Positions 5,701 to 52,103 of a stretch of 64,000 nt of DNA are shown here, piece by piece. A model generated the notes under the pieces. The model was not told the origin of the DNA. It did not search any database and saw only the letters and a program-made list of their open reading frames with translations. Location of the stretch: positions 9,414 to 73,413 of the forward strand of contig CAIKXD010000028.1 of the NCBI GenBank assembly GCA_903831265.1, given 5' to 3'. Within the stretch, counting starts at the first letter, position 1; every line of letters begins with the position of its first letter. The stretch comes from an uncultured Bacteroidota bacterium (GTDB taxonomy: Bacteria; Bacteroidota; Bacteroidia; UBA4408). The position numbers and the translations under genes were made by a program.

Positions 5701-6586
5701 AAGAAACCGAACCAAAAGTAATAGTACCATTTGAAGTTGGCTCACCACCTAAAGTAACACCTAAATCACCTTTTAAACTAGGAATTGAAAGTTCAGCACC
5801 TGTAGGATTTAAAGCTACATAATTTCTAACTATAGTTCCAGCATCATTAGTGATTTGCAAATTTAACTCATAATGTACAGTTCCAGTAGTAGTTACCTGA
5901 CCTAAAAATACTCTGTTTGTACTTGTTGGCCCTGACATACCTGCAGTTCCTGAAGCAGCTAATACCGCAATTGAACCATTAGATAAGATAAAACTTCCAC
6001 TAGCTTGACTAACATCGCCAAAAACATTATTGATTGCCAATAAAGTTGCAGCATCAGCAGCAATTTGAACATCTTGTAAAGTACCATTAGTAAATCCATC
6101 TCTAGTGTTAAGTGTAGCACCTATAGAAGGGTCATTGTTTAACAATAAACCATTTGCATTTACTACAGTTCCAACGCCATTATCTTCTGTTTTCAAAATA
6201 CCTACTTGCGAAGTAGCTGGGTTGTTATTGTTAGTAGTAGCACCAATTGATAAATATGAATCAAGCATTACTGTATTATCAGCAGCTTGCGCTTTTGTCC
6301 AATTTGGTATTGAAGCACCTCTATCTGTATTATTGAAAAAGGTACTAGAGCTAACAAACTTTAGATCATGACCTGAAGTACCATAAACAGCTTGTAATTT
6401 AAAGCCAGTTGAAAGATCTGCAAAGAATCTATACGTAACAGATCCAACCGGTAAAGTACCCGCACTTCCTGCTGCATCAGCTGCATTAGAAACGTAGTAC
6501 TTCTCAACGATTATATTCTCTAACCCTTGCGCAAAGGAAAAACTCCCTGTTGCAACAAGCATTAGCATGATTAGTATTTTTTTCAT
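2729..6586 (-). CDS. Giant (1285 aa) T/S/N/G-rich secreted surface protein, T9SS cargo, with the conserved N-terminal 'VEKYY' paralog domain
   Basis: Signal peptide MKKILIMLMLVATGSFSFAQ. The N-terminal ~270 aa align with the 367/368/457-aa paralogs (IIVEKYY...LPVGSVTYR...NTVMLDSYLS...GILKTEDNG...TNRV...LN). A long low-complexity beta-rich body follows. The C-terminal T9SS sorting domain is ...LAQGIYMVKIQSNNSLVTKKIIIK. Confidence 0.85.
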   Translation of the reverse strand: MKKILIMLMLVATGSFSFAQGLENIIVEKYYVSNAADAAGSAGTLPVGSVTYRFFADLSTGFKLQAVYGTSGHDLKFVSSSTFFNNTDRGASIPNWTKAQAADNTVMLDSYLSIGATTNNNNPATSQVGILKTEDNGVGTVVNANGLLLNNDPSIGATLNTRDGFTNGTLQDVQIAADAATLLAINNVFGDVSQASGSFILSNGSIAVLAASGTAGMSGPTSTNRVFLGQVTTTGTVHYELNLQITNDAGTIVRNYVALNPTGAELSIPSLKGDLGVTLGGEPTSNGTITFGSVSSNSIQVNLSGGNGAKRLLLIKSGSLVNTNPTDATTYVANSAISLGDQLGSGNWVVYNNNGTGNVVTVTGLTPNTTYHFRAIEYNGAAGGENYFISSTANASQITSNTGTVYNWNQAGAGPFNYNTAANWTPSRTNPSADDRLVIGATVSSVSVIDNVPAQTIGTLQIQNNSNVTLFIDGASSLLVNGNSLTSDDFRVDAGSTLTINGGVGSAIKLVGNATANIFGAVISNTGSSIIGSVAGAVKFKTGSSFTTGVSYLGAAFGGPTAITNSVQFETGASYIHNGGENPFQKFAPLSAVEFRPGSNQTFNTVNGFEVNGRTYRNLTIGASITTSLTGALSMTSLTISSTGQFTVNGTGSSAINLTGGITNNSNNPLSITAGSGNINFLSSGTIGGTGTGAISLLSLPLGAVTVSTGVTLTVQKNISFVNLNLVGSASYKFGAAALTANFSGTITGTGSFSSFGTDANFNFTGSGSVGNLKNNGFINNLTINTPSTTSTLLSTLKVLGTVTVTDGTLNSNGFLILSSNPTRQGIISGAGTANVTGNVTVERYLTATPAKTRYISCPVSGLTTTTAWGDDYVVQGLFPYTYATNVALPAPPNAPTIWTYDEANTLPVTPWESAVGQPISNSLVGYSATLHNSLARTLDVTGPANNGPLSNVLPATNGGFHIIGNPYPSPIRFSVLRNLPGQVSLQNGYYGWSAANSGYGFYNGAAPGLSTFGMTDTIFTSQAVAITTSTPAGGTLITDNTIRHGSNSPSFNRDAVVKNIVKLNVQNQDGVDQLAIGTVNGGTENYNPEIDMAKMMNNPTETHPELGMVIDNRILAIKAFENLIPSRSIPLHLIAKVDGIYTFSVAEFSNTENNLNAYLVDVEANKKVKLKTGAKYSVALSNSIYNNRFYLNYENSEVALSDSEVSLNDVDFFNNNESLSIINNGDAAASDVVLFDMSGKLLMQQGVNLSKGISTVELPSLAQGIYMVKIQSNNSLVTKKIIIK

Positions 6587-19211: not shown

Positions 19212-22200
19212 ATGAAAAATTACTGCTTTAAATCACTTTTATTTACATTCTTTTTACTGCAAATTAGTGCACATGTTTACTCACAAAACGGAAATATATC
19301 TGGTAAAATAATTGACAAATTAACCGGTGAAGAAATCATTGGAGCTGTTGTAAAAATAGACAGCACAAATACTGCTACTTCAACTGATTTAAGTGGCAAC
19401 TACAATTTAAAAGTACCCGCAGGCAACCATACAATTGTATGCAACTTTATAAGTTACAGAAAAATTATTGTAAAAAATGTATCAGTTAAAGCAGGAGAAA
19501 GCATCACACTTGATTTTACTTTAGAATCTGATAATGTAGAAATTAAAGAAGTAGTAATTGAAGCTGTGCAACAAAGAAACACAGATGCATCTTTAATCTC
19601 CATTCAAAAAAAATCATTCGCTGTGCAAGATGGTATTTCGGCACAACAAATGGCACGCACGGGCAGCAGCAATGCTGCAGAATCAATGAAACAAATGACT
19701 GGCGCCAATGTAGAAGATGGCAAATTTATGGTAATGCGCGGGCTAGGCGATAGATATTCTATTGCACAATTAAACGGACTTCCAATTCCAAGTAGTGACC
19801 CTTATCGCAATGCATCTAGTTTAGATTTAATTCCTTCATCATTTGTTGACAATATTGTTACCACAAAAACCTTTACGCCAGATCAACCGGGCAATTTTGC
19901 AGGAGGAAATTTAAATATTAGCACTAAAAGTTTTCCTGAAAAACCTTATGTAACTGTAAACATTTCACAATCAATGAATACGCTTTCTTCTATGAATGGC
20001 GATTTTCTTAGTTATCAAGGTGGAAGCACAGACTGGAGAGGAGTTGATGATGATACTAGAAAAGTACCTTTGATTGCTTTAAATGATTCGATCAGAGATA
20101 TGATTAATTCAAGTTTATACCTTGATGCACGCAAAAAAAGCAAAGACTTTGAAATAGAAAGACAACTGTTTAATAGCTCGGCTAAAGTTTTTAGCAATGA
20201 ATTTATTGCAGAAAAAACTGGTGAAGCAAATAACGAAAGCGGTGTGGGATATCAATTAAGGCAAGCATTTGGTTTAAATAATAATTATAATAAAACCCCC
20301 TTAAACAACAACTACAGCCTTGCAGCTGGACAAAGGTATGTGATTGGAAAAACCGAAATTGGGATGACAATTGGAGGAAATTATCAAAGAAATTTTACAC
20401 ATTATAACGATGGAGAAATAAATACCTTCATCAACACCAATACCGAAAAATTATTTGCGTACCAAGCACTTAAAGAAACTAAAAGTATTGATAATCCTCA
20501 ACTTGGAGGACTAGCTAATTTAGCAGTAAAGATTGCTAAAAAACACACAATCGGTATAACTGGTATTTACAGCAATGATGCAGAAAAAGTTGCACGTCAG
20601 CAATCTGGTACTTTTATGGGACAAGTATCAGATTCACGCGCTCAATTTAATACCAATGTATTAGAATTTACACAAAGAGAATTAAAGACACTTGTTGTTA
20701 ATGGAAGCCACAGTTTTAAACTATTAAATGGTTTAGATATCGATTGGTCGGCAAGTAATACCAATACACGCCAATACGAGCCAGATTTGCGTTATTTTGC
20801 TTATACCTCTGTTAAAGATACTGCCGATTCGGTTGGTGCAAATGGTGATTTAGTAAGATACCTCGATACTGCTTATTACATGAACAATGCTGAGTTTGCA
20901 TTTCCATATCACTTTTATAGAGATTTAAAAGATAGTCAACAACAAGCAAAAATTGATTTTACATTAAACATTAATAAGTCGCAAAGCTTTAAAATAAAGT
21001 GGGGTGGATATTACAGTTCAACTAAAAGAAAATTCGAGGAGTATCGCTTTCAAATGAACAACTCGGGCATTCAATCTTCACAAAAGTTATTGTTAGATAA
21101 TTACAATGGCGATTTAAATGCATTTTTAGATAGTGATAATTTTGGCATTACCGATACAACTAGAAACTCGCAAGGTGCTATCACAAGATATGCTACAGGC
21201 TGGCATTACATCAATCAAGTTAACAACAGAAACTTTTATACGGGCCAACAAGATATTACTGCAGCCTACGCCATGACAGTATTTTCACCACTTAAAAATT
21301 TAAAAATAATTACAGGTGCGCGCATCGAAAGTACCAACTTAAATGTAGCAAGCCGCGATACAAATGCCATATTTTATTCAATTAATGGCGATAGTATTAT
21401 CGATCCAGGTAAGCTAAAATTATTAGATCTTTTACCATCTATAAATACTGTTTATGCTTTAACCGAAAAATCTAACTTAAGATTGGCATTTAGTCAAACA
21501 ATTGCACGTCCAAACATGAGAGAATTAGCTCCTTTCGAGCAGTTTGATACAAAAAATGGTTTTTACAACGTGGGTAATCCAGGCTTAAAAAGAACCTTAA
21601 TTAATAACTTCGATATTCGTTATGAGTTTTACACACGTCCTGGAGAAATAATTGCCGTAAGTGCTTACTATAAAACCTTTAAAGATCCTATCATTAGAGC
21701 ATTTAATCCTAAGGCAACTATACCAGAGCTTAGCTTTGTAAATGTTGATAAAGCAGAAGTATTAGGTGCCGAATTCGAATTCAGAAAAAGCTTAGATTTT
21801 ATTTCCCCTTTCTTGCACGATTTTTACATAAATACCAACTTAACTTTAATCAATTCTCGTGTTGATATTCCAGTAAAAGAAATTGAAAATTCTAAAAATG
21901 TTGACTCAACTTATGCTGTAGAAAGCCGCCCGTTTCAAGGACAAGCGCCTTACATTGTAAATGCTATTTTAACCTATGCCAATCCTAAAATTGGTCACGA
22001 AAGTTCACTATCATTCAACGTATCTGGACCAAAATTATACAGCATTTCATTATTTGCCACGCCCGATATTTATGAATCACCAGTGCCATTTTTAAATTTT
22101 AAAACCACTCAAAATGTGGGTAAATACTGGCAATTTTCGCTAGTTATGCGCAATTTATTAAACGCAAAAGTGTCTAAAACGCAAGTTTACCGTGGCCAAA

Positions 22201-22268
22201 CCTATTATGCCGAAACATTTCAAATTGGAAGAACATTTGGCTTAGGAGTAAGCTTTAAAATCAAATAA
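19212..22268 (+). CDS. TonB-dependent outer-membrane receptor (1018 aa) with an N-terminal CarboxypepD_reg-like domain
   Basis: Signal peptide, then GKIIDKLTGEEIIGAVVKIDST...TDLSGNYNL. A plug region follows (MKQMTGANVEDGKFMVMRGLGDRYS...LNGLPIP) and then a C-terminal barrel (...GRTFGLGVSFKIK). It is a paralog of 10962..14021. Confidence 0.9.
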   Translation: MKNYCFKSLLFTFFLLQISAHVYSQNGNISGKIIDKLTGEEIIGAVVKIDSTNTATSTDLSGNYNLKVPAGNHTIVCNFISYRKIIVKNVSVKAGESITLDFTLESDNVEIKEVVIEAVQQRNTDASLISIQKKSFAVQDGISAQQMARTGSSNAAESMKQMTGANVEDGKFMVMRGLGDRYSIAQLNGLPIPSSDPYRNASSLDLIPSSFVDNIVTTKTFTPDQPGNFAGGNLNISTKSFPEKPYVTVNISQSMNTLSSMNGDFLSYQGGSTDWRGVDDDTRKVPLIALNDSIRDMINSSLYLDARKKSKDFEIERQLFNSSAKVFSNEFIAEKTGEANNESGVGYQLRQAFGLNNNYNKTPLNNNYSLAAGQRYVIGKTEIGMTIGGNYQRNFTHYNDGEINTFINTNTEKLFAYQALKETKSIDNPQLGGLANLAVKIAKKHTIGITGIYSNDAEKVARQQSGTFMGQVSDSRAQFNTNVLEFTQRELKTLVVNGSHSFKLLNGLDIDWSASNTNTRQYEPDLRYFAYTSVKDTADSVGANGDLVRYLDTAYYMNNAEFAFPYHFYRDLKDSQQQAKIDFTLNINKSQSFKIKWGGYYSSTKRKFEEYRFQMNNSGIQSSQKLLLDNYNGDLNAFLDSDNFGITDTTRNSQGAITRYATGWHYINQVNNRNFYTGQQDITAAYAMTVFSPLKNLKIITGARIESTNLNVASRDTNAIFYSINGDSIIDPGKLKLLDLLPSINTVYALTEKSNLRLAFSQTIARPNMRELAPFEQFDTKNGFYNVGNPGLKRTLINNFDIRYEFYTRPGEIIAVSAYYKTFKDPIIRAFNPKATIPELSFVNVDKAEVLGAEFEFRKSLDFISPFLHDFYINTNLTLINSRVDIPVKEIENSKNVDSTYAVESRPFQGQAPYIVNAILTYANPKIGHESSLSFNVSGPKLYSISLFATPDIYESPVPFLNFKTTQNVGKYWQFSLVMRNLLNAKVSKTQVYRGQTYYAETFQIGRTFGLGVSFKIK

Positions 22269-22282
22269 ATTAGTTTCCCCAA

Positions 22283-22365
22283 CCTGAGCAAAGCTAAAGA
22301 GGGCAATCCCATCGCTTTGCTCAGGGCCGGGCCATCCGCGCTACACGGTAGCTTGCTCCTGTCCC
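22283..22365 (+). repeat. GC-rich structured intergenic element, copy A (hairpin plus conserved tail); second copy at 48775..48855
   Basis: The inverted repeat is cctgagcaaagc-N19-gctttgctcagg, followed by gccgggccatccgcgctacacggtagcttgctcctgtccc. This is ~70% identical to the tail of copy B and shares the tgagcaaagc arm. It is a GC island in AT-rich DNA just downstream of the receptor gene. Confidence 0.5.
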
Positions 22366-22779
22366 TATTGCAAATCAATTAACACAACACAATAAATATT
22401 CTGGCGCGAGTCATCTGAGACTTGTGCCTATTCAAATTATACCAGCACAAGTCTTCAGGCTCATATACCCATTACATTTTCAATTTAGTCCAATTGCGGC
22501 CAAGCCTTATTGTACTAGTTTCAAGTTGTATCGGCATTAACCATTGTAAATTTATTAAACAGCTTTGGGCTATTTAATAAATACAATCGGTATTATACCA
22601 TTACTTGCGTAAAATTAGTCCAATCCGTTTCTTCTACAATGCACATAGAGTAGCTCTTATGGCGTAATTCATTGAACTATTTCAGTAAACACATAGGTAT
22701 TAATTTGCAATTAAAAAAATAGACCTAATTTATTCCCTAATTTTTAGTATTTTTGAGAATCAAAACTTATTTAACCCAA

Positions 22780-24024
22780 ATGAAAAAAATATTTACACTA
22801 GTATTGCTAGCATTAGCATTTGAAAATTCAAATGCACAAAATTGTATCGAAAACACCAATAGCATTAGCTTTGATGGTTTTAGCACGAGTGCTACATCTA
22901 GCAGTCAAAGCAACCTGAATATTACCGATTCCATTACTGTAGAAGCATGGATCAATCCAAATTCCTTTGGCTTTAATTCGGCTCAAAACTCTATTGTTTG
23001 CAAACACGGATGGAGCAGTGGCGAAGGTGGCTTTGTATTACGCTGTGGTGGTTCTGGTGAATTAGCTTTTAATATTGCTGGCCTTGATATCAATCAAAAT
23101 CCAACAAGTTGGAAAGAAGTATTTACACCAACTAACGCTTTAACACTTAATACCTGGACTCATGTTGCTGGTTCATACGATGGTCAAAATTTAAGGGTGT
23201 TTGTTAATGGTGTTGAACAAAATATTGCACCTTTTGCAGGAAGTATTGCAAATTCGCAAAATTATCCAATAACCTTAGGCAAACTAAGCGACCCTAACCA
23301 GTTTGCTCAACGCTTCTTCGATGGAAAAATGGATGAAGTACGCATTTGGCACCGTGCGCTAACAGCCAATGAATTAATGGCTAATATGAATAAACATATT
23401 GATCCTACAACAGCAGTTAACTTAGTTTCTTATTGGCGTTTTAATGAAGGTACAGGAAATACTAGTATTGACTTACAAAGTACAAACGATTTAACCGTTA
23501 ATGGTAATAATTGGGATATTTCGGTTCCTTTTAATCAAGTTCCTCCTACCCCTGTAATTTCTTTTAATGGCTTTGAATTAATTGCATCAACCACAGGTGG
23601 AAATTGGTATTTAAATGGCAACATAATTCCTAATGCTATTGATAGCAATTATACACCTGCAGTAAATGGTGATTATACTTTTACAACCAATCCAAATAGC
23701 GATGGATGCACCAATACTAGTTTAATTTACACTCTAACAAGTGTGGGTATGCAAAATCTAAATTTCAATATCACGGCAAATGTTTTCCCTAATCCAATAA
23801 TAGATGAAGCAACACTTGCAGTAAATTCAAATGTAATATTAAACAATAGCATTTTGGTTATTACCGATATCGCAGGTCGAAAAGTTTATGCTGAAAATAC
23901 CGCTTTAAAACAAGGCTTAAATCAAGTAAAGATTTCCAAAAACAACTTAAATTCAGGCGTCTATTTTTACGAAATTTTAAATAATAGCCAAAGTTTAACC
24001 AAAGGCAAATTGATGTTAAAATAA
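22780..24024 (+). CDS. LamG-like (concanavalin A-like lectin/glucanase) jellyroll domain protein, T9SS cargo
   Basis: Laminin_G_3-type motifs are present: ITDSITVEAWINPNSF, NTWTHVAGSYDGQNLRVFVNGVEQ, GKMDEVRIWHRALTANEL. The T9SS C-terminal domain is VFPNPIIDEATL...GVYFYEILNNSQSLTKGKLMLK. The likely start is MKKIF at 22780; the ORF opens at 22753. Confidence 0.8.
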   Translation: MKKIFTLVLLALAFENSNAQNCIENTNSISFDGFSTSATSSSQSNLNITDSITVEAWINPNSFGFNSAQNSIVCKHGWSSGEGGFVLRCGGSGELAFNIAGLDINQNPTSWKEVFTPTNALTLNTWTHVAGSYDGQNLRVFVNGVEQNIAPFAGSIANSQNYPITLGKLSDPNQFAQRFFDGKMDEVRIWHRALTANELMANMNKHIDPTTAVNLVSYWRFNEGTGNTSIDLQSTNDLTVNGNNWDISVPFNQVPPTPVISFNGFELIASTTGGNWYLNGNIIPNAIDSNYTPAVNGDYTFTTNPNSDGCTNTSLIYTLTSVGMQNLNFNITANVFPNPIIDEATLAVNSNVILNNSILVITDIAGRKVYAENTALKQGLNQVKISKNNLNSGVYFYEILNNSQSLTKGKLMLK

Positions 24025-24082: not shown

Positions 24083-24241
24083 CCTTACATAGGGTTTTAC
24101 TTTTTATACCAATGTAATACCAATTGCATTAATTTTTTAGTCCAACTAAAAATAAATTTGCAATGTTTAATGTCAATACTATTTGGAATTAGCACAATAA
24201 GGCTTTAATACAATTCGTCTAAGTTGAAAGTGTAATCGGCA

Positions 24242-26230
24242 TTACATCTCAAAAACTTTCTTCCACACCGCAAAAGCAATAAACTTAAAAGTTCTGGTAT
24301 CATCAGGACCCAAATTATTACTAAACATTTGATCAAAATCGCGGTTTATTTTGTGCATATCAAAGTAATCTTTTAAACTATCATCAAAATATGGGCGCAC
24401 CGCATCTTTTATATTTTTAATCCATTGCGAGTTAGGGGTGGCAAAACCCATTTTATCTTTTCTGTTTAAAATAATATCGGGTACCACACCTCGCATCGAT
24501 TCGCGCAGTATGTGCTTGTTAACTCCATTTTTTATTTTGTAAGATGAAGGCAATTGAAAAGCATATTCAATTAAATTTATATCATCGGCAAAGGGTGTGC
24601 GCGACTCTACGCTATGCCACATACTACAACGGTCTTCGCACTTTAAATAAGCTTTTAAACGTGTATTGGTAAATTCCTGCATCAACATTTTATTGAGATT
24701 TTTTGGCACAGGTTCGCTTTGCAAACGATTTTTATTTTCGTTTAAAAATTGCGAATTTAAATAATATAAATCGCCAAAATAATTTCTATTTATTTGGTAC
24801 TGCACAAAGGCAGGTAACCTACGAATGGTAGAAAAACGCAAATGTTGTTTAGCAAAAAAGCTGTAGCGTAAATGCCAAGGCAAAAAACCTTTCATTTCAC
24901 TGTGTAATTTACCAAATTTAAATTGCTTTAAAATTTCGGCCCAATAGTTATACATGTAGCTGTGATAGCCACCAAACAATTCATCTCCACCTTGGCCATC
25001 TAAAACTACTTTAACACCTGCTTCTTTGGCCTTTTGCATTACTCTGTATTGCGCATAAGTACTGGTGCTCCAAATAGGTACATCCTGACAATAAATTAAA
25101 TTTTCAAGATCGCTAACTAATTCATCAGAATTAGGAAAAACACGGTAAAAAGCGCTATTAGTTTGCTCTGCCACGCGCGCTGCAAATGGACTTTCATCAA
25201 TAGTAATATCATTAAAAGAGGCGGTAAACAAGTTAATTTTTTCTTTAACACCACTTTCTTTATTTAAATTATCCATCAACGAAACAATGGCGCTACTATC
25301 AATTCCTCCACTCAAACATGCACCCACACTAACATCGGCTCTAAGGCGGAGTTTTACGGCATTGATTAGAAGCTCAGCTACCCGATCTTTTGCTACAATA
25401 AATTTTTCTTCTTCATAACTTTCATACCTGGCATTTGTTTCTAAAACATAATATCTATCAACATTAAAGTTACCCGTATTTACATGCAATTCAAAACTAT
25501 GTGCTGGAAAAAGTTCATTAATGTGTTTAAAAAAACTCAATGTTTCATATTCTATTTCACCTTTTACGAAGTAGTCGTAAACGGCTTCTTGCCTTATGCC
25601 TGTTTGTATGAATGGCATTTTTACTAAAGCTTTTTGCTCTGAGGCAAAGGCAAAAACATCTTTATCTTTATAGTAATAAAATGGCTTAACTCCAAAGCGA
25701 TCGCGTGCGCCAAAAAGTATATTTTTTGTTTTGTCGAAAATTACAAAAGCCCACATTCCATTGAACTTCTGTAAGCATTTTTTACCCCAAACTTTATAGG
25801 CAAAAAGTACCACTTCGGTATCGCTTTCTGATTTAAAAATACAACCTTTATCTTGGAGTTCTTTTCTAATTTCAATGTAGTTGTATATCTCGCCATTAAA
25901 GGTAATCCACAAATTGCCCTCATCAATACACATAGGTTGATGCCCGCTTGCATTTAAATCAATAATCGAAAGTCTGCGATGAAGCAACACCATATCGTAA
26001 GCCTCATTAGCTTCATTAATATTAATCTGCGAAGCGTAATCTAATTGATTTTGAATACATGCTTGTGGGGTATCATTACCAAAGGCTGTTGTTGTTTTTT
26101 GTTGGTGATGCAATAAATAGCCTTCACCATCAGGTCCACGGTGCGCAATCAATTTATTTAATAAAATAGCCGATGATTTGATATCATTTACTTGCTTATT
26201 AAATCTTACTATGCCGCCAATACCACACAT
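24242..26230 (-). CDS. Asparagine synthase (glutamine-hydrolysing) family amidotransferase
   Basis: The N-terminal MCGIGG matches the Ntn glutaminase Cys2. The protein is 662 aa and carries a PP-loop SGGIDSS. Its end is 2 nt from the stop of an adjacent flippase-like gene. Confidence 0.85.
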   Translation of the reverse strand: MCGIGGIVRFNKQVNDIKSSAILLNKLIAHRGPDGEGYLLHHQQKTTTAFGNDTPQACIQNQLDYASQININEANEAYDMVLLHRRLSIIDLNASGHQPMCIDEGNLWITFNGEIYNYIEIRKELQDKGCIFKSESDTEVVLFAYKVWGKKCLQKFNGMWAFVIFDKTKNILFGARDRFGVKPFYYYKDKDVFAFASEQKALVKMPFIQTGIRQEAVYDYFVKGEIEYETLSFFKHINELFPAHSFELHVNTGNFNVDRYYVLETNARYESYEEEKFIVAKDRVAELLINAVKLRLRADVSVGACLSGGIDSSAIVSLMDNLNKESGVKEKINLFTASFNDITIDESPFAARVAEQTNSAFYRVFPNSDELVSDLENLIYCQDVPIWSTSTYAQYRVMQKAKEAGVKVVLDGQGGDELFGGYHSYMYNYWAEILKQFKFGKLHSEMKGFLPWHLRYSFFAKQHLRFSTIRRLPAFVQYQINRNYFGDLYYLNSQFLNENKNRLQSEPVPKNLNKMLMQEFTNTRLKAYLKCEDRCSMWHSVESRTPFADDINLIEYAFQLPSSYKIKNGVNKHILRESMRGVVPDIILNRKDKMGFATPNSQWIKNIKDAVRPYFDDSLKDYFDMHKINRDFDQMFSNNLGPDDTRTFKFIAFAVWKKVFEM

Positions 26231-45844: not shown

Positions 45845-47389
45845 ATGAATAAAAGTAAAATAGTTAGATTAATTCTTGGCGATCAGCTCAATATAAATCA
45901 CTCATGGTTTTGCGAGGTAAATAATGATGTTACTTACGTGTTGATGGAAATTCAATCGGAAACCAATTACGCACAACATCACATTCAAAAAGTGCTTGCT
46001 TTTTTTGCAGCCATGCAGCAGTTTGCAGCACATCTTAAATCGTTAAAGCACCAAGTAATTTATTATAAACTAAACGATAAAAATAATTTACAAAGCTTTG
46101 ATAAAAATATACAATCATTAATTAATACACATGGTTTTACGCACTTCGAATACCTGCTGCCCGATGAGTACCGTGTTGATGAACATTTATTGTTGCTTAC
46201 TAAAAATCTTAAAATTACGCATCGCGCCTACGATACCGAACATTTTTACACTGAACGCAACGAGTTAGGTAATTTTTTTAAAGGTAAAAAAACATACCTT
46301 ATGGAAAGCTTCTACAGGTACATGCGTAAAAAACACCAAGTGCTTGTGGTAAATGGCGATCAGCCACTTCATGGCCAATGGAATTTTGATGGAGACAATA
46401 GAGAAAAACTACCAAAAAATCATCATCCCATTGCACCTCTTTTATTTTCGAATGATGTAAGTGAAATTGAAAAAGAAATTATAGAAGCCAATGTAAAAAC
46501 CATTGGAACCGTTAATTCCAACAACTTTATATGGCCTGTAAATAGAGCGCAATCGATCGAATTACTTAATTTTTTTGTTGAGCATTGCTTAGCGCTATTT
46601 GGTACTTTTCAAGATGCAATGGCACCAAACGAGTGGTCCTTATATCACTCACGATTATCATTTGCAATGAATATAAAAATGATATCGCCACAAGAAGTAA
46701 TTGAAAAAGCCATTGAAGCTTATCAAAAAGCACCTGATAAAATCCAATACAATCAACTAGAGGGTTTTGTGCGTCAAATTATTGGTTGGCGAGAGTATAT
46801 GCGAGGCATCTATTGGGAAAAAATGCCACAATATGCGCAGTTTAATTACTTTGAGCATCATGAAAAATTACCTGATTATTTTTGGACAGGCAAAACAAAA
46901 ATGAATTGCTTAAAAAATGCCATACAACAATCATTACAATTTGCCTATGCGCATCATATTCAACGTTTAATGATTACTGGTAATTTTGCACTCTTAGCAG
47001 GCGTTCATCCCGATGAAGTTGATGCCTGGTATTTAGGTATTTATATTGATGCATTAGAGTGGGTAGAAATTACCAATACGCGCGGTATGAGTCAGTTTGC
47101 AGATGGTGGCATTGTAGGTTCAAAACCTTATGTAAGTTCGGCAACCTATATCAATAAAATGAGTTCTTATTGCACAGGATGTTATTACAATAAAGCAAAA
47201 AAAACAGGCGATAAAGCTTGTCCGTTTAATAGTTTGTATTGGAATTTTTACGATAAACATGAAAGCAAATTGGCTAAAAATCCTCGCATTGGCATGATGT
47301 ACAATGTATGGCGAAGAATGCAACCTAATGATAAAACTGAACTACTTACACAAGCCGAATATTATTTAAAACATATAAACGAACTATAA
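45845..47389 (+). CDS. Fe-S cluster-containing cryptochrome/(6-4) photolyase-like protein (FeS-BCP / PhrB-CryB family, COG3046)
   Basis: The N-terminus IVRLILGDQLN is characteristic of 'deoxyribodipyrimidine photolyase-related protein'. A C-terminal 4-Cys cluster is present (YCTGCYYNKAKKTGDKACPFNSLYW). The protein is 514 aa. Confidence 0.85.
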   Translation: MNKSKIVRLILGDQLNINHSWFCEVNNDVTYVLMEIQSETNYAQHHIQKVLAFFAAMQQFAAHLKSLKHQVIYYKLNDKNNLQSFDKNIQSLINTHGFTHFEYLLPDEYRVDEHLLLLTKNLKITHRAYDTEHFYTERNELGNFFKGKKTYLMESFYRYMRKKHQVLVVNGDQPLHGQWNFDGDNREKLPKNHHPIAPLLFSNDVSEIEKEIIEANVKTIGTVNSNNFIWPVNRAQSIELLNFFVEHCLALFGTFQDAMAPNEWSLYHSRLSFAMNIKMISPQEVIEKAIEAYQKAPDKIQYNQLEGFVRQIIGWREYMRGIYWEKMPQYAQFNYFEHHEKLPDYFWTGKTKMNCLKNAIQQSLQFAYAHHIQRLMITGNFALLAGVHPDEVDAWYLGIYIDALEWVEITNTRGMSQFADGGIVGSKPYVSSATYINKMSSYCTGCYYNKAKKTGDKACPFNSLYWNFYDKHESKLAKNPRIGMMYNVWRRMQPNDKTELLTQAEYYLKHINEL

Positions 47390-48694
47390 ATGAAAACTTC
47401 AATTGTTTGGTTCAAAACCGATTTAAGATTACACGACAACGAAACATTAGTAAATGCGATAGCGCAGAGCGATTCTATTATTCCAGTATATTGTTTTGAT
47501 GAAGCTCACTTTAACAAAACTGCTTTTGGTTTCCAAAAAACTGGTGCATTTAGAGCACAATTTTTACTTGAATCATTGCTTAATTTGGATAAAAATTTAC
47601 GCCAATTAGGTTCAGGATTAATACTTTTACACGGCATACCTGCTCTTGAAATTGCTAAGCTTGCGCAAAAATATAAAGCCACAAAAGTATTTGCTAAGAA
47701 AGAAGTGGCAAGTGAAGAAATAAAAACACACCAAGCGGTGGAAGCAGCACTTTGGAAAATGCAAATACCACTTGAAACATTTAGCACAAGCACTTTATAT
47801 CACGCTAAGGATTTACCTTTTCCCTTAAAAGATATTCCCGAAATATTTACGCAGTTTAGAAAAAAAGTTGAAACAGAATCAGAAATCAGAAAGGCATTTG
47901 AAAAGCCAACTTCCATAAAATCTCCGGTAATAGAAAACATATGTTTGCCCACTTTAAAATCGTTAGGACTTAAAACGCCCAAATATGATTGCAGGGCGGC
48001 TATTGAATTTAAAGGAGGCGAAAGTGCCGCACTTGAAAGGCTAAATCATTATTTCACCGAAACGCAAGCCATATCAAGATATAAAGAAACAAGAAATGGA
48101 ATGATTGGTGCCAATTACTCCAGCAAATTGGCTCCATGGATGGCACAGGGCTGCATATCGCCTCGCAGCATATACTATCAATTAAAAAATTATGAATCTA
48201 TTTATGGTGCAAATGAGTCAACGTATTGGTTGGTTTTTGAGTTACTTTGGCGCGATTACTTTAGGTTTATGATGAAAAAACACCAAACACAATTTTTTCT
48301 TCAACAAGGTTTAAAGGGCGCAACTAGTAGCGCATACAAACACAACGTTAGCAAATTTGAAGCCTGGAAAAATGGCAAAACGGGTGTAGATTTTATTGAT
48401 GCCAACATGCTCGAATTAAAGCATACTGGTTTTATGAGTAACAGAGGAAGACAAAATGTAGCCAGTTATTTATGTCATAATTTAAAGCTCGATTGGCGCT
48501 ATGGCGCTGCCTATTTTGAAGAGCAGTTGATAGATTATGATGTTAGCAGCAACTGGGGCAATTGGTCTTATATAGCCGGTGTAGGAAACGATCCCAGAGA
48601 AAACAGGGTGTTTAATATCGAAAAACAAGCCCTTACCTACGATAAGAATAAATCGTACAGACAACTGTGGCTAGAGGATGAAATGATTAGCTGA
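47390..48694 (+). CDS. DASH-family cryptochrome
   Basis: The N-terminus SIVWFKTDLRLHDNETL and the protein's 434-aa length, plus FAD-binding region motifs, fit the DASH family. Its start abuts the stop of the upstream gene. Confidence 0.85.
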   Translation: MKTSIVWFKTDLRLHDNETLVNAIAQSDSIIPVYCFDEAHFNKTAFGFQKTGAFRAQFLLESLLNLDKNLRQLGSGLILLHGIPALEIAKLAQKYKATKVFAKKEVASEEIKTHQAVEAALWKMQIPLETFSTSTLYHAKDLPFPLKDIPEIFTQFRKKVETESEIRKAFEKPTSIKSPVIENICLPTLKSLGLKTPKYDCRAAIEFKGGESAALERLNHYFTETQAISRYKETRNGMIGANYSSKLAPWMAQGCISPRSIYYQLKNYESIYGANESTYWLVFELLWRDYFRFMMKKHQTQFFLQQGLKGATSSAYKHNVSKFEAWKNGKTGVDFIDANMLELKHTGFMSNRGRQNVASYLCHNLKLDWRYGAAYFEEQLIDYDVSSNWGNWSYIAGVGNDPRENRVFNIEKQALTYDKNKSYRQLWLEDEMIS

Positions 48695-48774
48695 TTAGCA
48701 AATTAGCTGATTAAATTAATGTGCCAATTTTATAATTTATTAGCGTTTTTTAATTAAGTATTTTTAGGGCAAAC

Positions 48775-48855
48775 CCTTTCGTTATTTGAGCAAAGCCTTG
48801 CTCAAATAACGAAAGGTCGGGCTGTGCGCGGTACAAGGTACCTTGCTTCCATCCC
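48775..48855 (+). repeat. GC-rich structured intergenic element, copy B (19-bp perfect hairpin plus conserved tail)
   Basis: The hairpin is cctttcgttatttgagcaa-agcc-ttgctcaaataacgaaagg, followed by tcgggctgtgcgcggtacaaggtaccttgcttccatccc. This tail is homologous to that of copy A and contains a nested palindrome caaggtaccttg. Confidence 0.5.
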
Positions 48856-49029
48856 TTTTGCATAGGTGTAGTGTTAAAATGAAACAACTGCCTATTTCCA
48901 AGGCTTTAGCTGCAAACTAGTTAATTAAACCCCAACATTTTAACAGTTGGCGCTAACACTAAAGGTTTAATTAGCGTACTATTAAAGAAAGTACTAATTT
49001 AGCTATATCAAAATGGTGATTTTTTAACA

Positions 49030-49599
49030 TTGCAAATAATAGTAGATCATAACATAATAGAAGGTTGTTTAAAAGGCAATCGTTTGTCGCAACAGCAGTT
49101 GTACAAGCATTGCTTTGACTTTTTAATACGTATTTGCAGGCGTTACGTTAGTAATAATGATGATGCGGTAGACCTCATCAATCAAAGCTTTTTAAAAATA
49201 TTAAACAACCTGGCCACCTTTAGAAAAAACGAAAATTTTGAAGCCTGGATAAGCACCATTGCAGTGCACACCGCCATAGATCATATTAGAAAAAACAAAA
49301 GATACAGAGAGCGTGTGGCCCTTAGCGATGATTATAAAATTGAATTGTTTGATTATAATCAAATAAGTATGAATGTGGCAGCAGATAAAATGATGGCCGA
49401 TGATATCATGAAAATGATACAACAGCTGCCCATTTTAACCCGCGAAGTATTAAATTTAAATGTAATTGAAGGATACCATCATAAAGAAATTGGAGAAATG
49501 CTTGGCATTTCAGAAGAAGCATCGAGATGGCATTTGCACAAAGCCCGTCAAATATTAAAAGAAAAATTATTAGTAAATAAAAAAGTAAAAGTAGCGTAA
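49030..49599 (+). CDS. RNA polymerase sigma-70 family (ECF-type) sigma factor
   Basis: Region 2 is DLINQSFLKILNNLATFRKNENFEAWISTIAVHTAIDHIRK. The region 4 HTH is LPILTREVLNLNVIEGYHHKEIGEMLGISEEASRWHLHKARQILKEKL. Confidence 0.85.
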   Translation: MQIIVDHNIIEGCLKGNRLSQQQLYKHCFDFLIRICRRYVSNNDDAVDLINQSFLKILNNLATFRKNENFEAWISTIAVHTAIDHIRKNKRYRERVALSDDYKIELFDYNQISMNVAADKMMADDIMKMIQQLPILTREVLNLNVIEGYHHKEIGEMLGISEEASRWHLHKARQILKEKLLVNKKVKVA

Positions 49600-49600
49600 C

Positions 49601-50938
49601 ATGGTAGATACAGAAGATAACTTTAATGAGTTTTTAAAACAAAAAGTGGAAGAAAGCCACTTTGAGTACAATGAGGCTTATTGGCTAAAAGCAGAAAAAC
49701 TGATAGAAAATGCTGAACCAAAAAGAAAGCCATTTTGGTTTGGCTTTGCTTGGGGCGCATTATCATTAGCCTTGGTTGGTGGCATTGCCGCAATGGTTTT
49801 AAATCTTAACCAACCAAAAAACAAATTGGCGCAAACGACTCAAAAGAGCAATGTTGGATTAATTACTAATGCAAGTGCGCAAGAAACAAATACGCAAAAA
49901 ACGCAAGCTGTAATAGCAGCTAGCCAATTAAACTCCAAAGCCAATCATGTGCAATCCAAAAAAATAACTGGCGCTAAAGTGGCTGTGCAAAATAAAACCT
50001 ATGCTAATGCATTGGCCAGCAACAACAATAAAAGTGGCATAAAAAATTCAATTGTGCATAGCAATGTAAATGAAAAAAGTAAGCAATCAAATACCAATAT
50101 CACCGCAAGTGTCAACAATCGTTATAAAGGCAGTTTTAGCCAGGTAAAGAGTTTATCGTTGCCAAAATTGCCTAAAAGCACCGTAATTGAAAATGAAGAT
50201 GATGATGTAGCAGAAGATCATAAAGTAATAACAATTGCAGAACCTGTAATTATTAGGGCAAAAGCGCCTTCAGTTAAAGATATTGATGTAAATATAGTAG
50301 CCGCTTGCGAAAATAAAAACAAGCATGAATGGATGTTTAATATACTTGCAGGCGTTAGCGACAGCAGAGGTTTTGAAGGTAATACTGCTACAACTTCAAG
50401 AATTGGATTTGGTTATTTTGGTGGATTTAGATTAGGATATAAAATTGATAAAAATTGGTTTGTAGGTGTGCAACCCTTAATATACAACAGGGGTGCAATA
50501 AATACAAGTATTCAAACACAAAAAACAGCTTACGATTTTGGTGCCAATGCCGACGAATTTATAGTAAAAAACAAAGCCTTGTTATTTGCCGAAATGCCTG
50601 TTTCTGTTGGGTACAGAGTACAACGTCATCAAATAAGTGTAGGTGCCGGATTTGAATATTTGGTAAATGTAAAAAGTGATGTAAAAGATTTTGGCACTGC
50701 AGCTTATACACCCAACCAATGGGGCTACACCAATGGCTTTAACCGCTTTGGAACCATTGCAATATTTAATTATGCATTTAATGTTTACAACCAACTATGG
50801 TTAACCATGATGGTGCAAAAAGGATTTACCGATTTAACAAAAGCAGATTATTTTACTACCAATAGCAAAGACAAAAATTTAAACCTACGAATTGGTGTAC
50901 AATACCAATTTAACAATCAAAAAAAGAAAGGAAAATAA
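49601..50938 (+). CDS. Putative anti-sigma factor / membrane protein with a C-terminal outer-membrane-beta-barrel-like domain
   Basis: Its start is 1 nt after the sigma gene stop. There is a short cytoplasmic N-terminus, one TM segment (FWFGFAWGALSLALVGGIAAMVL), an N/S/K-rich linker, and a C-terminal ~200 aa with alternating hydrophobic beta-strand patterning. Confidence 0.5.
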   Translation: MVDTEDNFNEFLKQKVEESHFEYNEAYWLKAEKLIENAEPKRKPFWFGFAWGALSLALVGGIAAMVLNLNQPKNKLAQTTQKSNVGLITNASAQETNTQKTQAVIAASQLNSKANHVQSKKITGAKVAVQNKTYANALASNNNKSGIKNSIVHSNVNEKSKQSNTNITASVNNRYKGSFSQVKSLSLPKLPKSTVIENEDDDVAEDHKVITIAEPVIIRAKAPSVKDIDVNIVAACENKNKHEWMFNILAGVSDSRGFEGNTATTSRIGFGYFGGFRLGYKIDKNWFVGVQPLIYNRGAINTSIQTQKTAYDFGANADEFIVKNKALLFAEMPVSVGYRVQRHQISVGAGFEYLVNVKSDVKDFGTAAYTPNQWGYTNGFNRFGTIAIFNYAFNVYNQLWLTMMVQKGFTDLTKADYFTTNSKDKNLNLRIGVQYQFNNQKKKGK

Positions 50939-50939
50939 G

Positions 50940-52103
50940 ATGATGAAAGTATTTTACAAATTTACAATCTTACTACTTACTGTATGCAGCTTATCTGCTT
51001 GCAAAAAAAAGGATTTACCGGCAGTTGAAGAGGGTACTCCAGTATTTATGATAGATAGTAAAGTAAACGGAAGTGCAGTAAACATTGCTGCAGGTAAAGC
51101 AGATTATTTTATGTTTACCTCACATAATTTAGACGGCTTGGGCATTAATGTACTAAGCGGAACATTAAGCAACAAACAATGCGAAAACTGCAATCATGTC
51201 TTTACTATTTCATATAGAGATAGTTATTATAGAAACAATCTTATGATTAATAATATTGAATCTGTTTTAAAGCCGGGTAACTTTAATTTTTACAATGGGG
51301 TTGATACTTTAGGCAATAATACCGTTCAGGGAACTGTAGTTAATTTTACCGCCTATGCCCCCGCTGGCACCAACTATACTTACAGTTGGAATTTTGGTGA
51401 TGGCGGAACCTCAACGCTTGCTAACCCAACACATCAATATACCGAGCCAGCCGATTACAATGTTTGTTTAACAGTAAGCAGTGCAGGTTATCCATCAAAA
51501 ACAATTTGCAATACCATTGCCATGGATACCATGTGCCGATTTCAGTTTAACCAAAGTGCCAGTCAAAATTATGTTAACTTTTTTACCATCGGCAACGCTA
51601 ATTCTTATGCATGGAATTTTGGCGATACTGTTGGTTTTTCTGTGAGTGGGCAAACAACCTCACATACCTACAACCAGGCGGGTATTTATAGAGTTACACT
51701 AAAAGATACTTTAGCTGGTTTAAGTTGTAATAATGTTTTTGAAAAAGATTTATTGATTGGTAATTTTACGGGCAATGAAGTGGCTGCAGGATTTAATTAC
51801 AACTATGCTACTATTACTCCAATGGCTCCGTTGCCTGCTGACAGTGGTTTTGGAAAAGTAGTGGTGAACTACACTGCGCCAAATGGAAATAAATATAGTA
51901 CTTACAATGCTTTTGTTGCACACAATCAAATAAACAATAACTTTGTAGTAAGCAAAGCAAGTCCCTATCAAAACAATAGTTTAGGCCAAAAAACCTACAA
52001 AATGGAAGGTAGTTTTAAAGCTTGGTTTTATAATGTAAACAATGCAAACGATTCAATATTCATAGAAACATCTAAATTTATTATGGGAGTAGCTTTCCCT
52101 TAA
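50940..52103 (+). CDS. PKD domain-containing lipoprotein
   Basis: The lipoprotein signal is LTVCSLSACKKK. PKD-type motifs are present (YSWNFGDGGTSTLANPTHQYTEPADYNVCLTV and a second WNFGDT...HTYNQAGIYRVTL). The start was moved to MMKVF. Confidence 0.75.
   Translation: MMKVFYKFTILLLTVCSLSACKKKDLPAVEEGTPVFMIDSKVNGSAVNIAAGKADYFMFTSHNLDGLGINVLSGTLSNKQCENCNHVFTISYRDSYYRNNLMINNIESVLKPGNFNFYNGVDTLGNNTVQGTVVNFTAYAPAGTNYTYSWNFGDGGTSTLANPTHQYTEPADYNVCLTVSSAGYPSKTICNTIAMDTMCRFQFNQSASQNYVNFFTIGNANSYAWNFGDTVGFSVSGQTTSHTYNQAGIYRVTLKDTLAGLSCNNVFEKDLLIGNFTGNEVAAGFNYNYATITPMAPLPADSGFGKVVVNYTAPNGNKYSTYNAFVAHNQINNNFVVSKASPYQNNSLGQKTYKMEGSFKAWFYNVNNANDSIFIETSKFIMGVAFP

Follow-up and report, generated by a model that had tools for sequence, protein, structure and literature searches.

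What is the long perfect hairpin that separates a photolyase gene from a sigma factor gene in an uncultured Bacteroidota bacterium? The stretch analyzed here, hereafter the window, covers 64,000 nucleotides (GenBank assembly GCA_903831265.1, contig CAIKXD010000028.1, positions 9,414 to 73,413). An earlier note, made from the sequence alone, had described the hairpin and a conserved tail behind it as copy B of a GC-rich element, of which copy A lies elsewhere in the window, and had considered a terminator-associated small RNA (sRNA) or a mobile palindromic element and, for a 10-bp inverted repeat farther downstream, autoregulation of the extracytoplasmic function (ECF) sigma operon. We show that A and B are members of a phylum-wide family of structured intergenic repeats, whose three-way junction is under purifying selection. 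Sequence comparison further identifies the element as a short-armed relative of Flavo-1 (RF01705), in which a conserved 5-bp tip replaces the long A/U-rich distal arm.

The 19-bp perfect hairpin after the gene read as cry-DASH is present (arms 48775-48793 and 48798-48816, loop AGCC). It is the longest, and the only perfect long, hairpin of the window, and none of 100 shuffles matched it; the region as a whole folds with z = -5.1. Hairpin and tail are not separate entities, as had been supposed, and form a single element of 97 nt with a three-way junction fold (Table 1). The hairpin is the variable arm (P2) of the junction, and the tail consists of the conserved long arm (P3-P4) and the 3′ strand of the closing helix (P1). 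Of the interval 48695-49029 originally assigned to it, the element fills 48767-48863, and it is GC-rich relative to the window (34%) but not in absolute terms (copy B about 50%; copy A 62%). The 5′ half of the long arm of B runs C, GGG, a C·U mismatch, TG, loop TGC, GC and the tip GGTAC-AAG-GTACC, and the arm returns through a TT bulge, GC, loop TTC, CA, T and CCC. The tail does contain the palindrome CAAGGTACCTTG (48834-48845). Taken alone it is near chance, with a match in 10 of 100 shuffles when up to one mismatch is allowed, and it is a by-product of the tip hairpin GGUAC-AAG-GUACC: 97 of 107 copies have the non-palindromic tip GCUAC/GUAGC. P2 ranges from 0 to 45 nt over 76 full-length copies (median 11.5, mode 9), among which the arm of B is the most stable (-27.2 kcal/mol). 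Two candidate 5′ partners for P1 score equally in B, GGGCAAAC at 48767 and GAGCAAAG at 48788; the register from 48788 yields 59.6 bits, and the covariance model described below gives B about 60 bits overall.

Copy A sits just 3′ of a plus-strand TonB-dependent receptor gene (19212-22268). It was located via a scan for GC-rich 40-mers (GC-rich patch 22293-22368), after direct-repeat searches and BLAST against the window, with the hairpin or tail of B as query, had missed it; a 13-nt match at 20227 was rejected as a second copy, being a chance match within a coding region. No gap is needed to align the 49-nt tails of A (22325-22373) and B (48817-48865), and their differences preserve pairing (GCTAC-ACG-GTAGC versus GGTAC-AAG-GTACC; GGGCCA/TGTCCC versus GGGCTG/CATCCC). 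With filters off, the covariance model found no further copies in the 64 kb, the next match scoring 13.9 bits. The view of A and B as two copies of one structured element is borne out. Upstream of A lies an extra 12-nt segment, CCTGAGCAAAGC (22283-22294), that is perfectly complementary to the P2 loop region of A (22314-22325) and has TGAGCAAAGC in common with the 19-bp P2 arm of B. The A-like relatives at loci L070, L103, L115 and L118 are without this segment, which may be the remnant of an inverted partial copy or duplication.

The element is by no means confined to two sites. When we scanned the core pattern CGCGSTACANGGTASCTTGCT against one genome per species, it matched at least 118 sites besides the window copies. 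Among the matches listed, almost all are from Bacteroidota, with hosts in Flavobacterium, Tenacibaculum, Aquimarina, Joostella, Gillisia, Arenibacter, Chryseobacterium, Chitinophagaceae, Ekhidna and many metagenome-assembled genomes. Family members begin with TTWGG-GCGTT (P1), followed by CCC..GGG (P2, of any length), U-CGGGCUNUC (P3), CGCGCUACANGGUAGCUUGCU (P4), NCNAUCCC (P3′) and U-AACGC (P1′). Near-invariant features of the arm are the C·U mismatch, a 3×3 pyrimidine loop (UYC/UNC), a GC/GC step, a UU bulge and, at the top, the 5-bp tip with an ANG triloop, which reads GCUAC-ANG-GUAGC in copy A and most relatives. P1, a 5-bp closing helix, has a lineage-dependent sequence, and the P2 hairpin is free in both length and sequence. 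A type II form, common in Flavobacterium, has the sequence AGGAGC-(short linker)-UCCCGCU...AUCGGGGCUA, with a flipped P3 (CCCG/CGGG in place of GGG/CCC) and usually no P2.

Because automatic P1 detection and constrained folding were unreliable, and MAFFT split P1 in a mixed alignment, the covariance model (R1) was built from nine equal-length natural copies with a hand-written structure. The window and 99 loci yielded 108 copies, whose alignment was fitted to R1. Standard pairs filled 98.6% of the pair cells, compared with 80.5% after shuffling and 30-50% when partners were slid by 1-3 columns. The comparison between copies that the earlier note had called for revealed compensatory double-sided changes at 15 of 20 pairs, with all five pairs of P1 covarying; the covariation score (0.318 versus 0.071) was exceeded in 0 of 500 shuffles. 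Orthologous copies tell the same story on a finer scale. In three Aquimarina species, CGGG/CCCT is replaced by CAGG/CCTT in a compensatory manner, and the adjoining non-coding DNA has diverged; a copy after queD is kept at orthologous sites across genera (L048, L095 and L076), again with compensatory changes. Lineage variants of P1 and of the tip are common to copies at non-orthologous loci of related genomes. None of the B-like (L039, L061, L067) or A-like loci encodes a homologue of the window genes beside A or B, and a literature search with the core sequence string returned no match.

We then compared the element with Flavo-1. Rfam 15 returned nothing at gathering (42 bits for RF01705) for the window, nor for the element in 18 loci, and neither A nor B matched Flavo-1 even at E ≤ 10, where only noise such as miRNA families appeared. 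When run on short stretches, the RF01705 model gave 36.4 bits (E 1e-6) for the type II copy of L080 and 15 bits for the type I copy of L027, both on the strand opposite R1, with all scaffold positions fitting the consensus uuuUAGCCccGAUuGaAGc[...]gCGgAaAGCggGA. In reverse complement, the long arm corresponds to the Flavo-1 scaffold, whose elements (a basal 3-4 bp helix, a purine or pyrimidine mismatch, two covarying pairs, a 3×3 loop and the GC/GC step) are complete in A and B. Read on the opposite strand, the two have in common the helix GGG/CCC or CCG/CGG, the A·G mismatch, the GNA/GGA loop, the GC/GC step and the flank, GCGUUAGGGAU or UAGCCCCGAU; both are multicopy in Bacteroidetes hosts with no consistent gene association or orientation, and both bear a variable distal stem above the scaffold, 5 bp long in the window-type copies. 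The relatives of the window and its proteins with sorting domains of the type IX secretion system likewise place it in this phylum. They differ in that the tip here is a 5-bp GC-rich stem with a triloop and a 2-nt bulge, whereas the Flavo-1 arm is long and A/U-rich; in that the P1 closing helix and inserted P2 arm of the window copies are not in the Rfam model; and in that the strand evidence presented below favors the strand opposite that of Rfam. The published seed alignment contains both scaffold types (GCGUUAGGGAUU... and UAGCCCCGAUU...), distal arms of a few to about 100 nt, and one member, NZ_AAMP01000001.1/75896-75953, with a short GUUAC-CGUG-UAAC tip (PMC2864571). The Rfam model ends at ...GCCCGACC, and so leaves out P2 and the P1 partner strand. 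Canonical Flavo-1 matches in L047 (7908-7988, 66.8 bits) and L080 (4080-4259, 58.4 bits) stand beside short-tip copies in the same 8-kb Flavobacterium loci, so both forms live in one genome. Flavo-1 is only a "presumed" sRNA, modeled by Weinberg et al. in 2010 and by Rfam on the opposite strand (PMC2864571), and it ranks among the most abundant Rfam "sRNA" families (PMC9029176). The earlier note had drawn no connection to it.

All copies are intergenic, in either orientation: 35 lie between co-directional genes in sense and 23 in antisense, 15 between divergent and 8 between convergent genes. The observation that both copies follow plus-strand genes in the same orientation thus holds within the window but not across the family. 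Of the genomic copies, 52 are sense to the upstream gene; 20 of these begin no more than 15 nt from its stop codon, 10 of them no more than 2 nt, and the conserved TTWGG flank often contains that stop codon. Matches to the pattern also occur in seven IMG/VR contigs (L121-L127, phage or prophage), each with a full-length copy. The nine phage copies come from five independent loci; each is sense to its flanking genes and begins 0-2 nt from the stop codon of the gene upstream. One contig, L125, carries three copies within 4 kb of a replication/recombination module (PHROG matches to NinB and a primase/helicase), and another phage copy follows a gene with a weak match to a terminase large subunit. 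The neighbors of the genomic copies are unrelated housekeeping genes such as trpE|trpG, mgtE, a queD-like PTPS gene, rplT and ruvB; a copy in Aquimarina lies within the trp operon, with trpE and trpG on either side and the Bacteroid-trp leader upstream. Downstream genes on the same strand, 41 in number, matched 82 Pfam families, none in more than three genes and none enriched; with no related downstream genes, the element does not behave as a riboswitch or other cis-regulatory leader. Inverted pairs in L051, L052, L018 and L103 enclose single housekeeping genes with no transposase between, and several copies fall at contig ends, a typical place for repeats, which break assemblies.

These data bear directly on the reading of the hairpin as the intrinsic terminator of the cry-DASH gene, or an sRNA derived from it, with the 10-bp inverted repeat as an operator through which the ECF sigma factor autoregulates. 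The hairpin is very stable, and both window copies lie in sense after plus-strand genes. However, the terminator scan of 48500-49200 was empty, no T run follows the hairpin or, in 71 copies, the element, and 23 of 58 co-directional copies are antisense, with others between divergent genes. In L030, L058 and L078 the copy begins 5-10 nt past a separate canonical terminator. The flanks of the 71 copies (60 nt upstream, 50 nt downstream) have in common only TTWGG at -5 to -1 and a purine at +1, with no promoter or terminator signal at a fixed distance on either side; the arrangement expected of an independent sRNA gene (-33 TTTG / -7 TAnnTTTG and a downstream terminator) was absent from these copies. 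The inverted repeat exists, at 48872-48881 and 48936-48945 and not at 48873-82 and 48927-36, but occurs at chance frequency, which speaks against autoregulation through it and against any other role: perfect 10-mer inverted repeats with spacers of up to 100 nt number 38 in the window versus 25.8 ± 6.4 in Markov-1 simulations, and 13% of simulated 335-nt regions of the same composition hold one. Moreover, ECF sigma promoters are recognized via -35/-10 elements (AAC / CGT type), not palindromes. The element is not a Rho-independent terminator, nor does it regulate the ECF sigma operon, and we regard the terminator-and-operator explanation as very improbable. When orthologues of the stretch from cry-DASH to ECF sigma were sought, every contig that came up was identical to the window (L001 and L002).

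How, then, might the element work? We tentatively propose, at somewhat short of even confidence, that the invariant arm is the recognition site of a factor and that the element acts in cis in transcripts, as a 3′-end barrier or processing module similar to repetitive extragenic palindromic (REP) elements. A conserved trans-acting factor would recognize the P3-P4 arm, which P1 and P2 would merely keep in shape. Lacking its own promoter and terminator, the element would be carried passively in any transcript that crosses it, and its + strand would give a very stable structure directly after the 3′ end of the upstream cistron, in many cases from the stop codon onward, where it could act on the processing or stability of the upstream message. 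Antisense or untranscribed copies would be tolerated relics of the spread of the repeat. The sense and stop-codon preference, the copies inside operons, the excess of G·U pairs and the phage copies together point to an RNA-level role on the R1 strand: in the R1 orientation, G·U pairs number 27 and A·C pairs 9 (binomial p = 0.004; nearly all in P1 and P2), and the phage copies agree with that strand. Several observations weigh against this proposal. The sense bias among co-directional genomic copies is weak (35 versus 23). The P4 core was fixed by the search pattern, so its invariance is overstated, and copies found by the model alone on a phage contig still vary the tip in a compensatory manner (GCTGC/GCAGC, GATAC/GTATC). 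On the R1 strand the irregularities of the arm are pyrimidine-pyrimidine mismatches, unusual for an RNA recognition motif, and on the Rfam strand they are G·A pairs and an AA bulge, which are more like an RNA module; such a conflict is compatible with recognition of one DNA strand. Flavo-1 matches in F. psychrophilum lie sense or antisense to transcribed regions, and many are untranscribed (PMC9723704). Copies at contig ends, lineage variants at non-orthologous sites and inverted pairs fit a DNA-level selfish element.

That last explanation is the main rival to a cis-acting transcript module, and we consider it somewhat unlikely. It holds that the element is a REP-like repeat whose single-stranded hairpin is cut and copied by an HUH-type Y1 transposase, such as a REP-associated tyrosine transposase (RAYT) of subclass 2.6, or by another recombinase, its conservation reflecting enzyme specificity and any effect on RNA being incidental. 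The earlier suggestion of a mobile palindromic element comes near the repeat-like behavior seen here, with many copies in both orientations, contig breaks and inverted pairs, and P1 and tip variants common to non-orthologous sites within a lineage, the presence in phages and the many untranscribed Flavo-1 matches (PMC9723704) would follow naturally. The conserved TTWGG flank recalls a target or cleavage site, and a bias of replication strand could explain the sense orientation of the phage copies just as well. Like REP elements and bacterial interspersed mosaic elements (BIMEs) of Proteobacteria, the element is a short, GC-rich imperfect palindrome that is multicopy, intergenic or intercistronic, found in either orientation and in inverted pairs, and kept in structure by compensatory changes. 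REP roles include protection of mRNA 3′ ends, and effects appear when a REP is close to a stop codon. Unlike REP/BIME and their RAYTs (E. coli TnpA-REP, PDB 4ER8), however, the element forms a three-way junction, and its core is conserved phylum-wide: the same 21-nt core recurs in several Bacteroidota classes, whereas a REP and its RAYT usually diverge together. The element has TTWGG-GCGTT in place of the canonical GT[AG]G foot; most copies contain GTAG solely within the P4 tip, where copy B has GTAC. Housekeeping genes, not transposase genes, lie between the inverted pairs, and the copies kept at orthologous sites across genera, as after queD, argue in the same direction. Among 2,841 open reading frames (ORFs) in 1.0 Mb around some 145 copies, a hidden Markov model (HMM) from 120 RAYTs gave a best match of E = 0.02 and a motif regular expression none, although this search is a weak test because a genome would carry only one or few RAYTs. 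Homologues retrieved with E. coli TnpA-REP as the seed were all from Enterobacteriaceae. In Bacteroidetes, subclass 2.6 RAYT genes are flanked by "atypical" REP-like structures (Quentin et al. 2018, PMC6006769), which resemble the element in their phylum, in being non-canonical hairpins without a GTAG foot and in having genomic copies elsewhere. They differ in being simple 8-10 bp hairpins with feet such as GCTAG or GCTGG, and none of those listed has this core; we treat them as a lead, not a match. Another parallel is MRSC-65-2, which, with other repeat candidates of a survey of GC-rich intergenic regions, was interpreted as a selfish element (Narunsky et al. 2024, PMC11109978). It too is GC-rich, structured and intergenic, covaries strongly and is present in dozens of copies per genome without consistent orientation, but it is a single long stem from other phyla, and neither Bacteroidetes nor Flavobacteria came up in a text search of that paper. 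Nor does the element have the form of a miniature inverted-repeat transposable element (MITE), which would have terminal inverted repeats of about 10 nt or more and a target-site duplication, as P1 is only 5 bp long and lineage-variable and no repeat is common to the 5′ and 3′ flanks.

Alternatively, the functional molecule could be a trans-acting sRNA or other RNA from the opposite strand, its G·A pairs and AA bulge forming a module that binds a protein or ligand, or even a ribozyme core; this we judge quite unlikely. It is the strand on which Rfam and Weinberg et al. modeled Flavo-1, classed as an sRNA, and its purine-rich irregularities (GNA/GGA loop, A·G mismatch, AA bulge) are those of many RNA tertiary modules. 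On it copy B folds nearly as well, at -43.7 kcal/mol versus -44.5 on the + strand. The wobble count, in contrast, favors the R1 strand, all phage copies would be antisense to transcripts, neither side has a promoter or terminator at a fixed distance, and transcriptome data reveal no consistent expression (PMC9723704).

Flavo-1 has had no function or secure strand assignment since 2010, and the present data extend the family in several respects. It is broader than the Rfam model detects, with a short-tip subfamily in more than 100 genomes and both window copies missed. In this subfamily the junction is closed by a covarying P1 and carries a free P2, neither of which is in the Rfam model; wobble asymmetry and phage copies favor the strand opposite the annotated one, and copies cluster at stop codons. 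For annotation, the element accounts for islands of high GC, and for contig breaks, in Bacteroidota assemblies of low GC content. It is unlikely, though worth stating, that Flavo-1-type elements, the short-tip subfamily included, constitute a phylum-wide system of transcript "punctuation". If so, a conserved Bacteroidota factor would bind the arm at stop codons and define, process or protect the 3′ ends of cistrons, and phages would have adopted the signal. Bacteroidota are not known to have Hfq or ProQ, and they rely little on Shine-Dalgarno pairing, so such a system would be a new general post-transcriptional layer, comparable to REP elements or to tRNA punctuation in mitochondria.

Table 1 Coordinates of the element copies and other repeats (window positions unless a locus is named)
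Feature	Position	Strand	Basis or remark
Copy B, whole element (5′ GGG to base after P1 3′)	48767..48863	+	R1 cmsearch 61.5 bits, E 3e-13, full model covered
B P1, 5′ strand GCAAA (partner TTTGC 48857-48861)	48769..48773	+	read from sequence
B P2, variable arm, perfect 19-bp hairpin, loop AGCC	48775..48816	+	inverted-repeat search, arm comparison
B P3-P4, conserved long arm, palindrome 48834-48845 inside	48818..48855	+	sequence, folding, R1 alignment
B P1, 3′ strand TTTGC	48857..48861	+	sequence and R1 alignment
10-bp inverted repeat TGTTAAAATG / CATTTTAACA, 54-nt spacer, outside element	48872..48945	.	repeat search
Copy A, whole element	22301..22373	+	R1 cmsearch 66.6 bits, E 1e-15
A P1, GCAAT / ATTGC	22303-07 / 22367-71	+	sequence
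A P2, CCC...GGG	22308-22326	+	sequence
A long arm, tip GCTAC-ACG-GTAGC	22328-22365	+	sequence
Extra segment CCTGAGCAAAGC upstream of A	22283..22294	+	sequence and folding
MITE-like repeat copies	22464-22595, 24111-24242	-, +	inverted pair
Three copies in phage contig L125	3033-3099, 6029-6094, 6751-6807	all -	

Other candidates for the identity of the element were examined and set aside. An integron attC site was rejected because the order of the core sites is wrong and no array exists, and a tRNA-like element for want of a T-loop. The junction is too small for a hammerhead or other known ribozyme, with no Rfam match, and the symmetric loop is not a K-turn. A Bacteroidetes -7 promoter box in the TTWGG flank was discarded because the upstream positions do not fit TAnnTTTG. 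The motif flanking the F. johnsoniae RAYT was rejected as a relative of the scaffold, since on hand alignment it pairs through the position of the 3×3 loop.

The genes around copy B deserve a brief description. The ORF read as cry-DASH (47390-48694) has a photolyase/cryptochrome fold with DNA_photolyase and FAD_binding_7 domains, and a DPRP (photolyase-related) gene (45845-47389) abuts it, stop against start. The ECF sigma factor gene spans 49030-49599 with a listed TTG start, although the annotated start is uncertain. One nucleotide beyond it lies an ORF of 445 aa that matches no Pfam family and may encode an anti-sigma factor; a gene for a PKD-domain protein overlaps this ORF by 47 nt (49030-52103 for the three together). 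The contigs L001 and L002 (ENA ERZ18653855 and ERZ27313511, about 2.75 kb) are 100% identical to the window over the cry-DASH gene and the whole copy B intergenic region; as identical contigs occur in at least two separate metagenome assemblies, the same strain has been sampled repeatedly.

In L067, two B-like copies (5832-5908 and 6262-6332) lie about 430 nt apart with near-identical 45-nt upstream flanks, which indicates a local tandem duplication of a unit including the element. Finally, the window holds a second repeat family, MITE-like and about 132 nt long, whose ends are inverted repeats of 12 nt (TAATACCRATTG ... GTAATCGGTATTA). Its inverted pair encloses an ORF (22753-24024) with a Laminin_G_3 domain and a type IX secretion system (T9SS) sorting domain. 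Relatives occur in L039 (942-1073, 96% identical), L070 and L115, and in both the window and L070 this repeat lies 90-160 nt from an A-like Flavo-1-type element.

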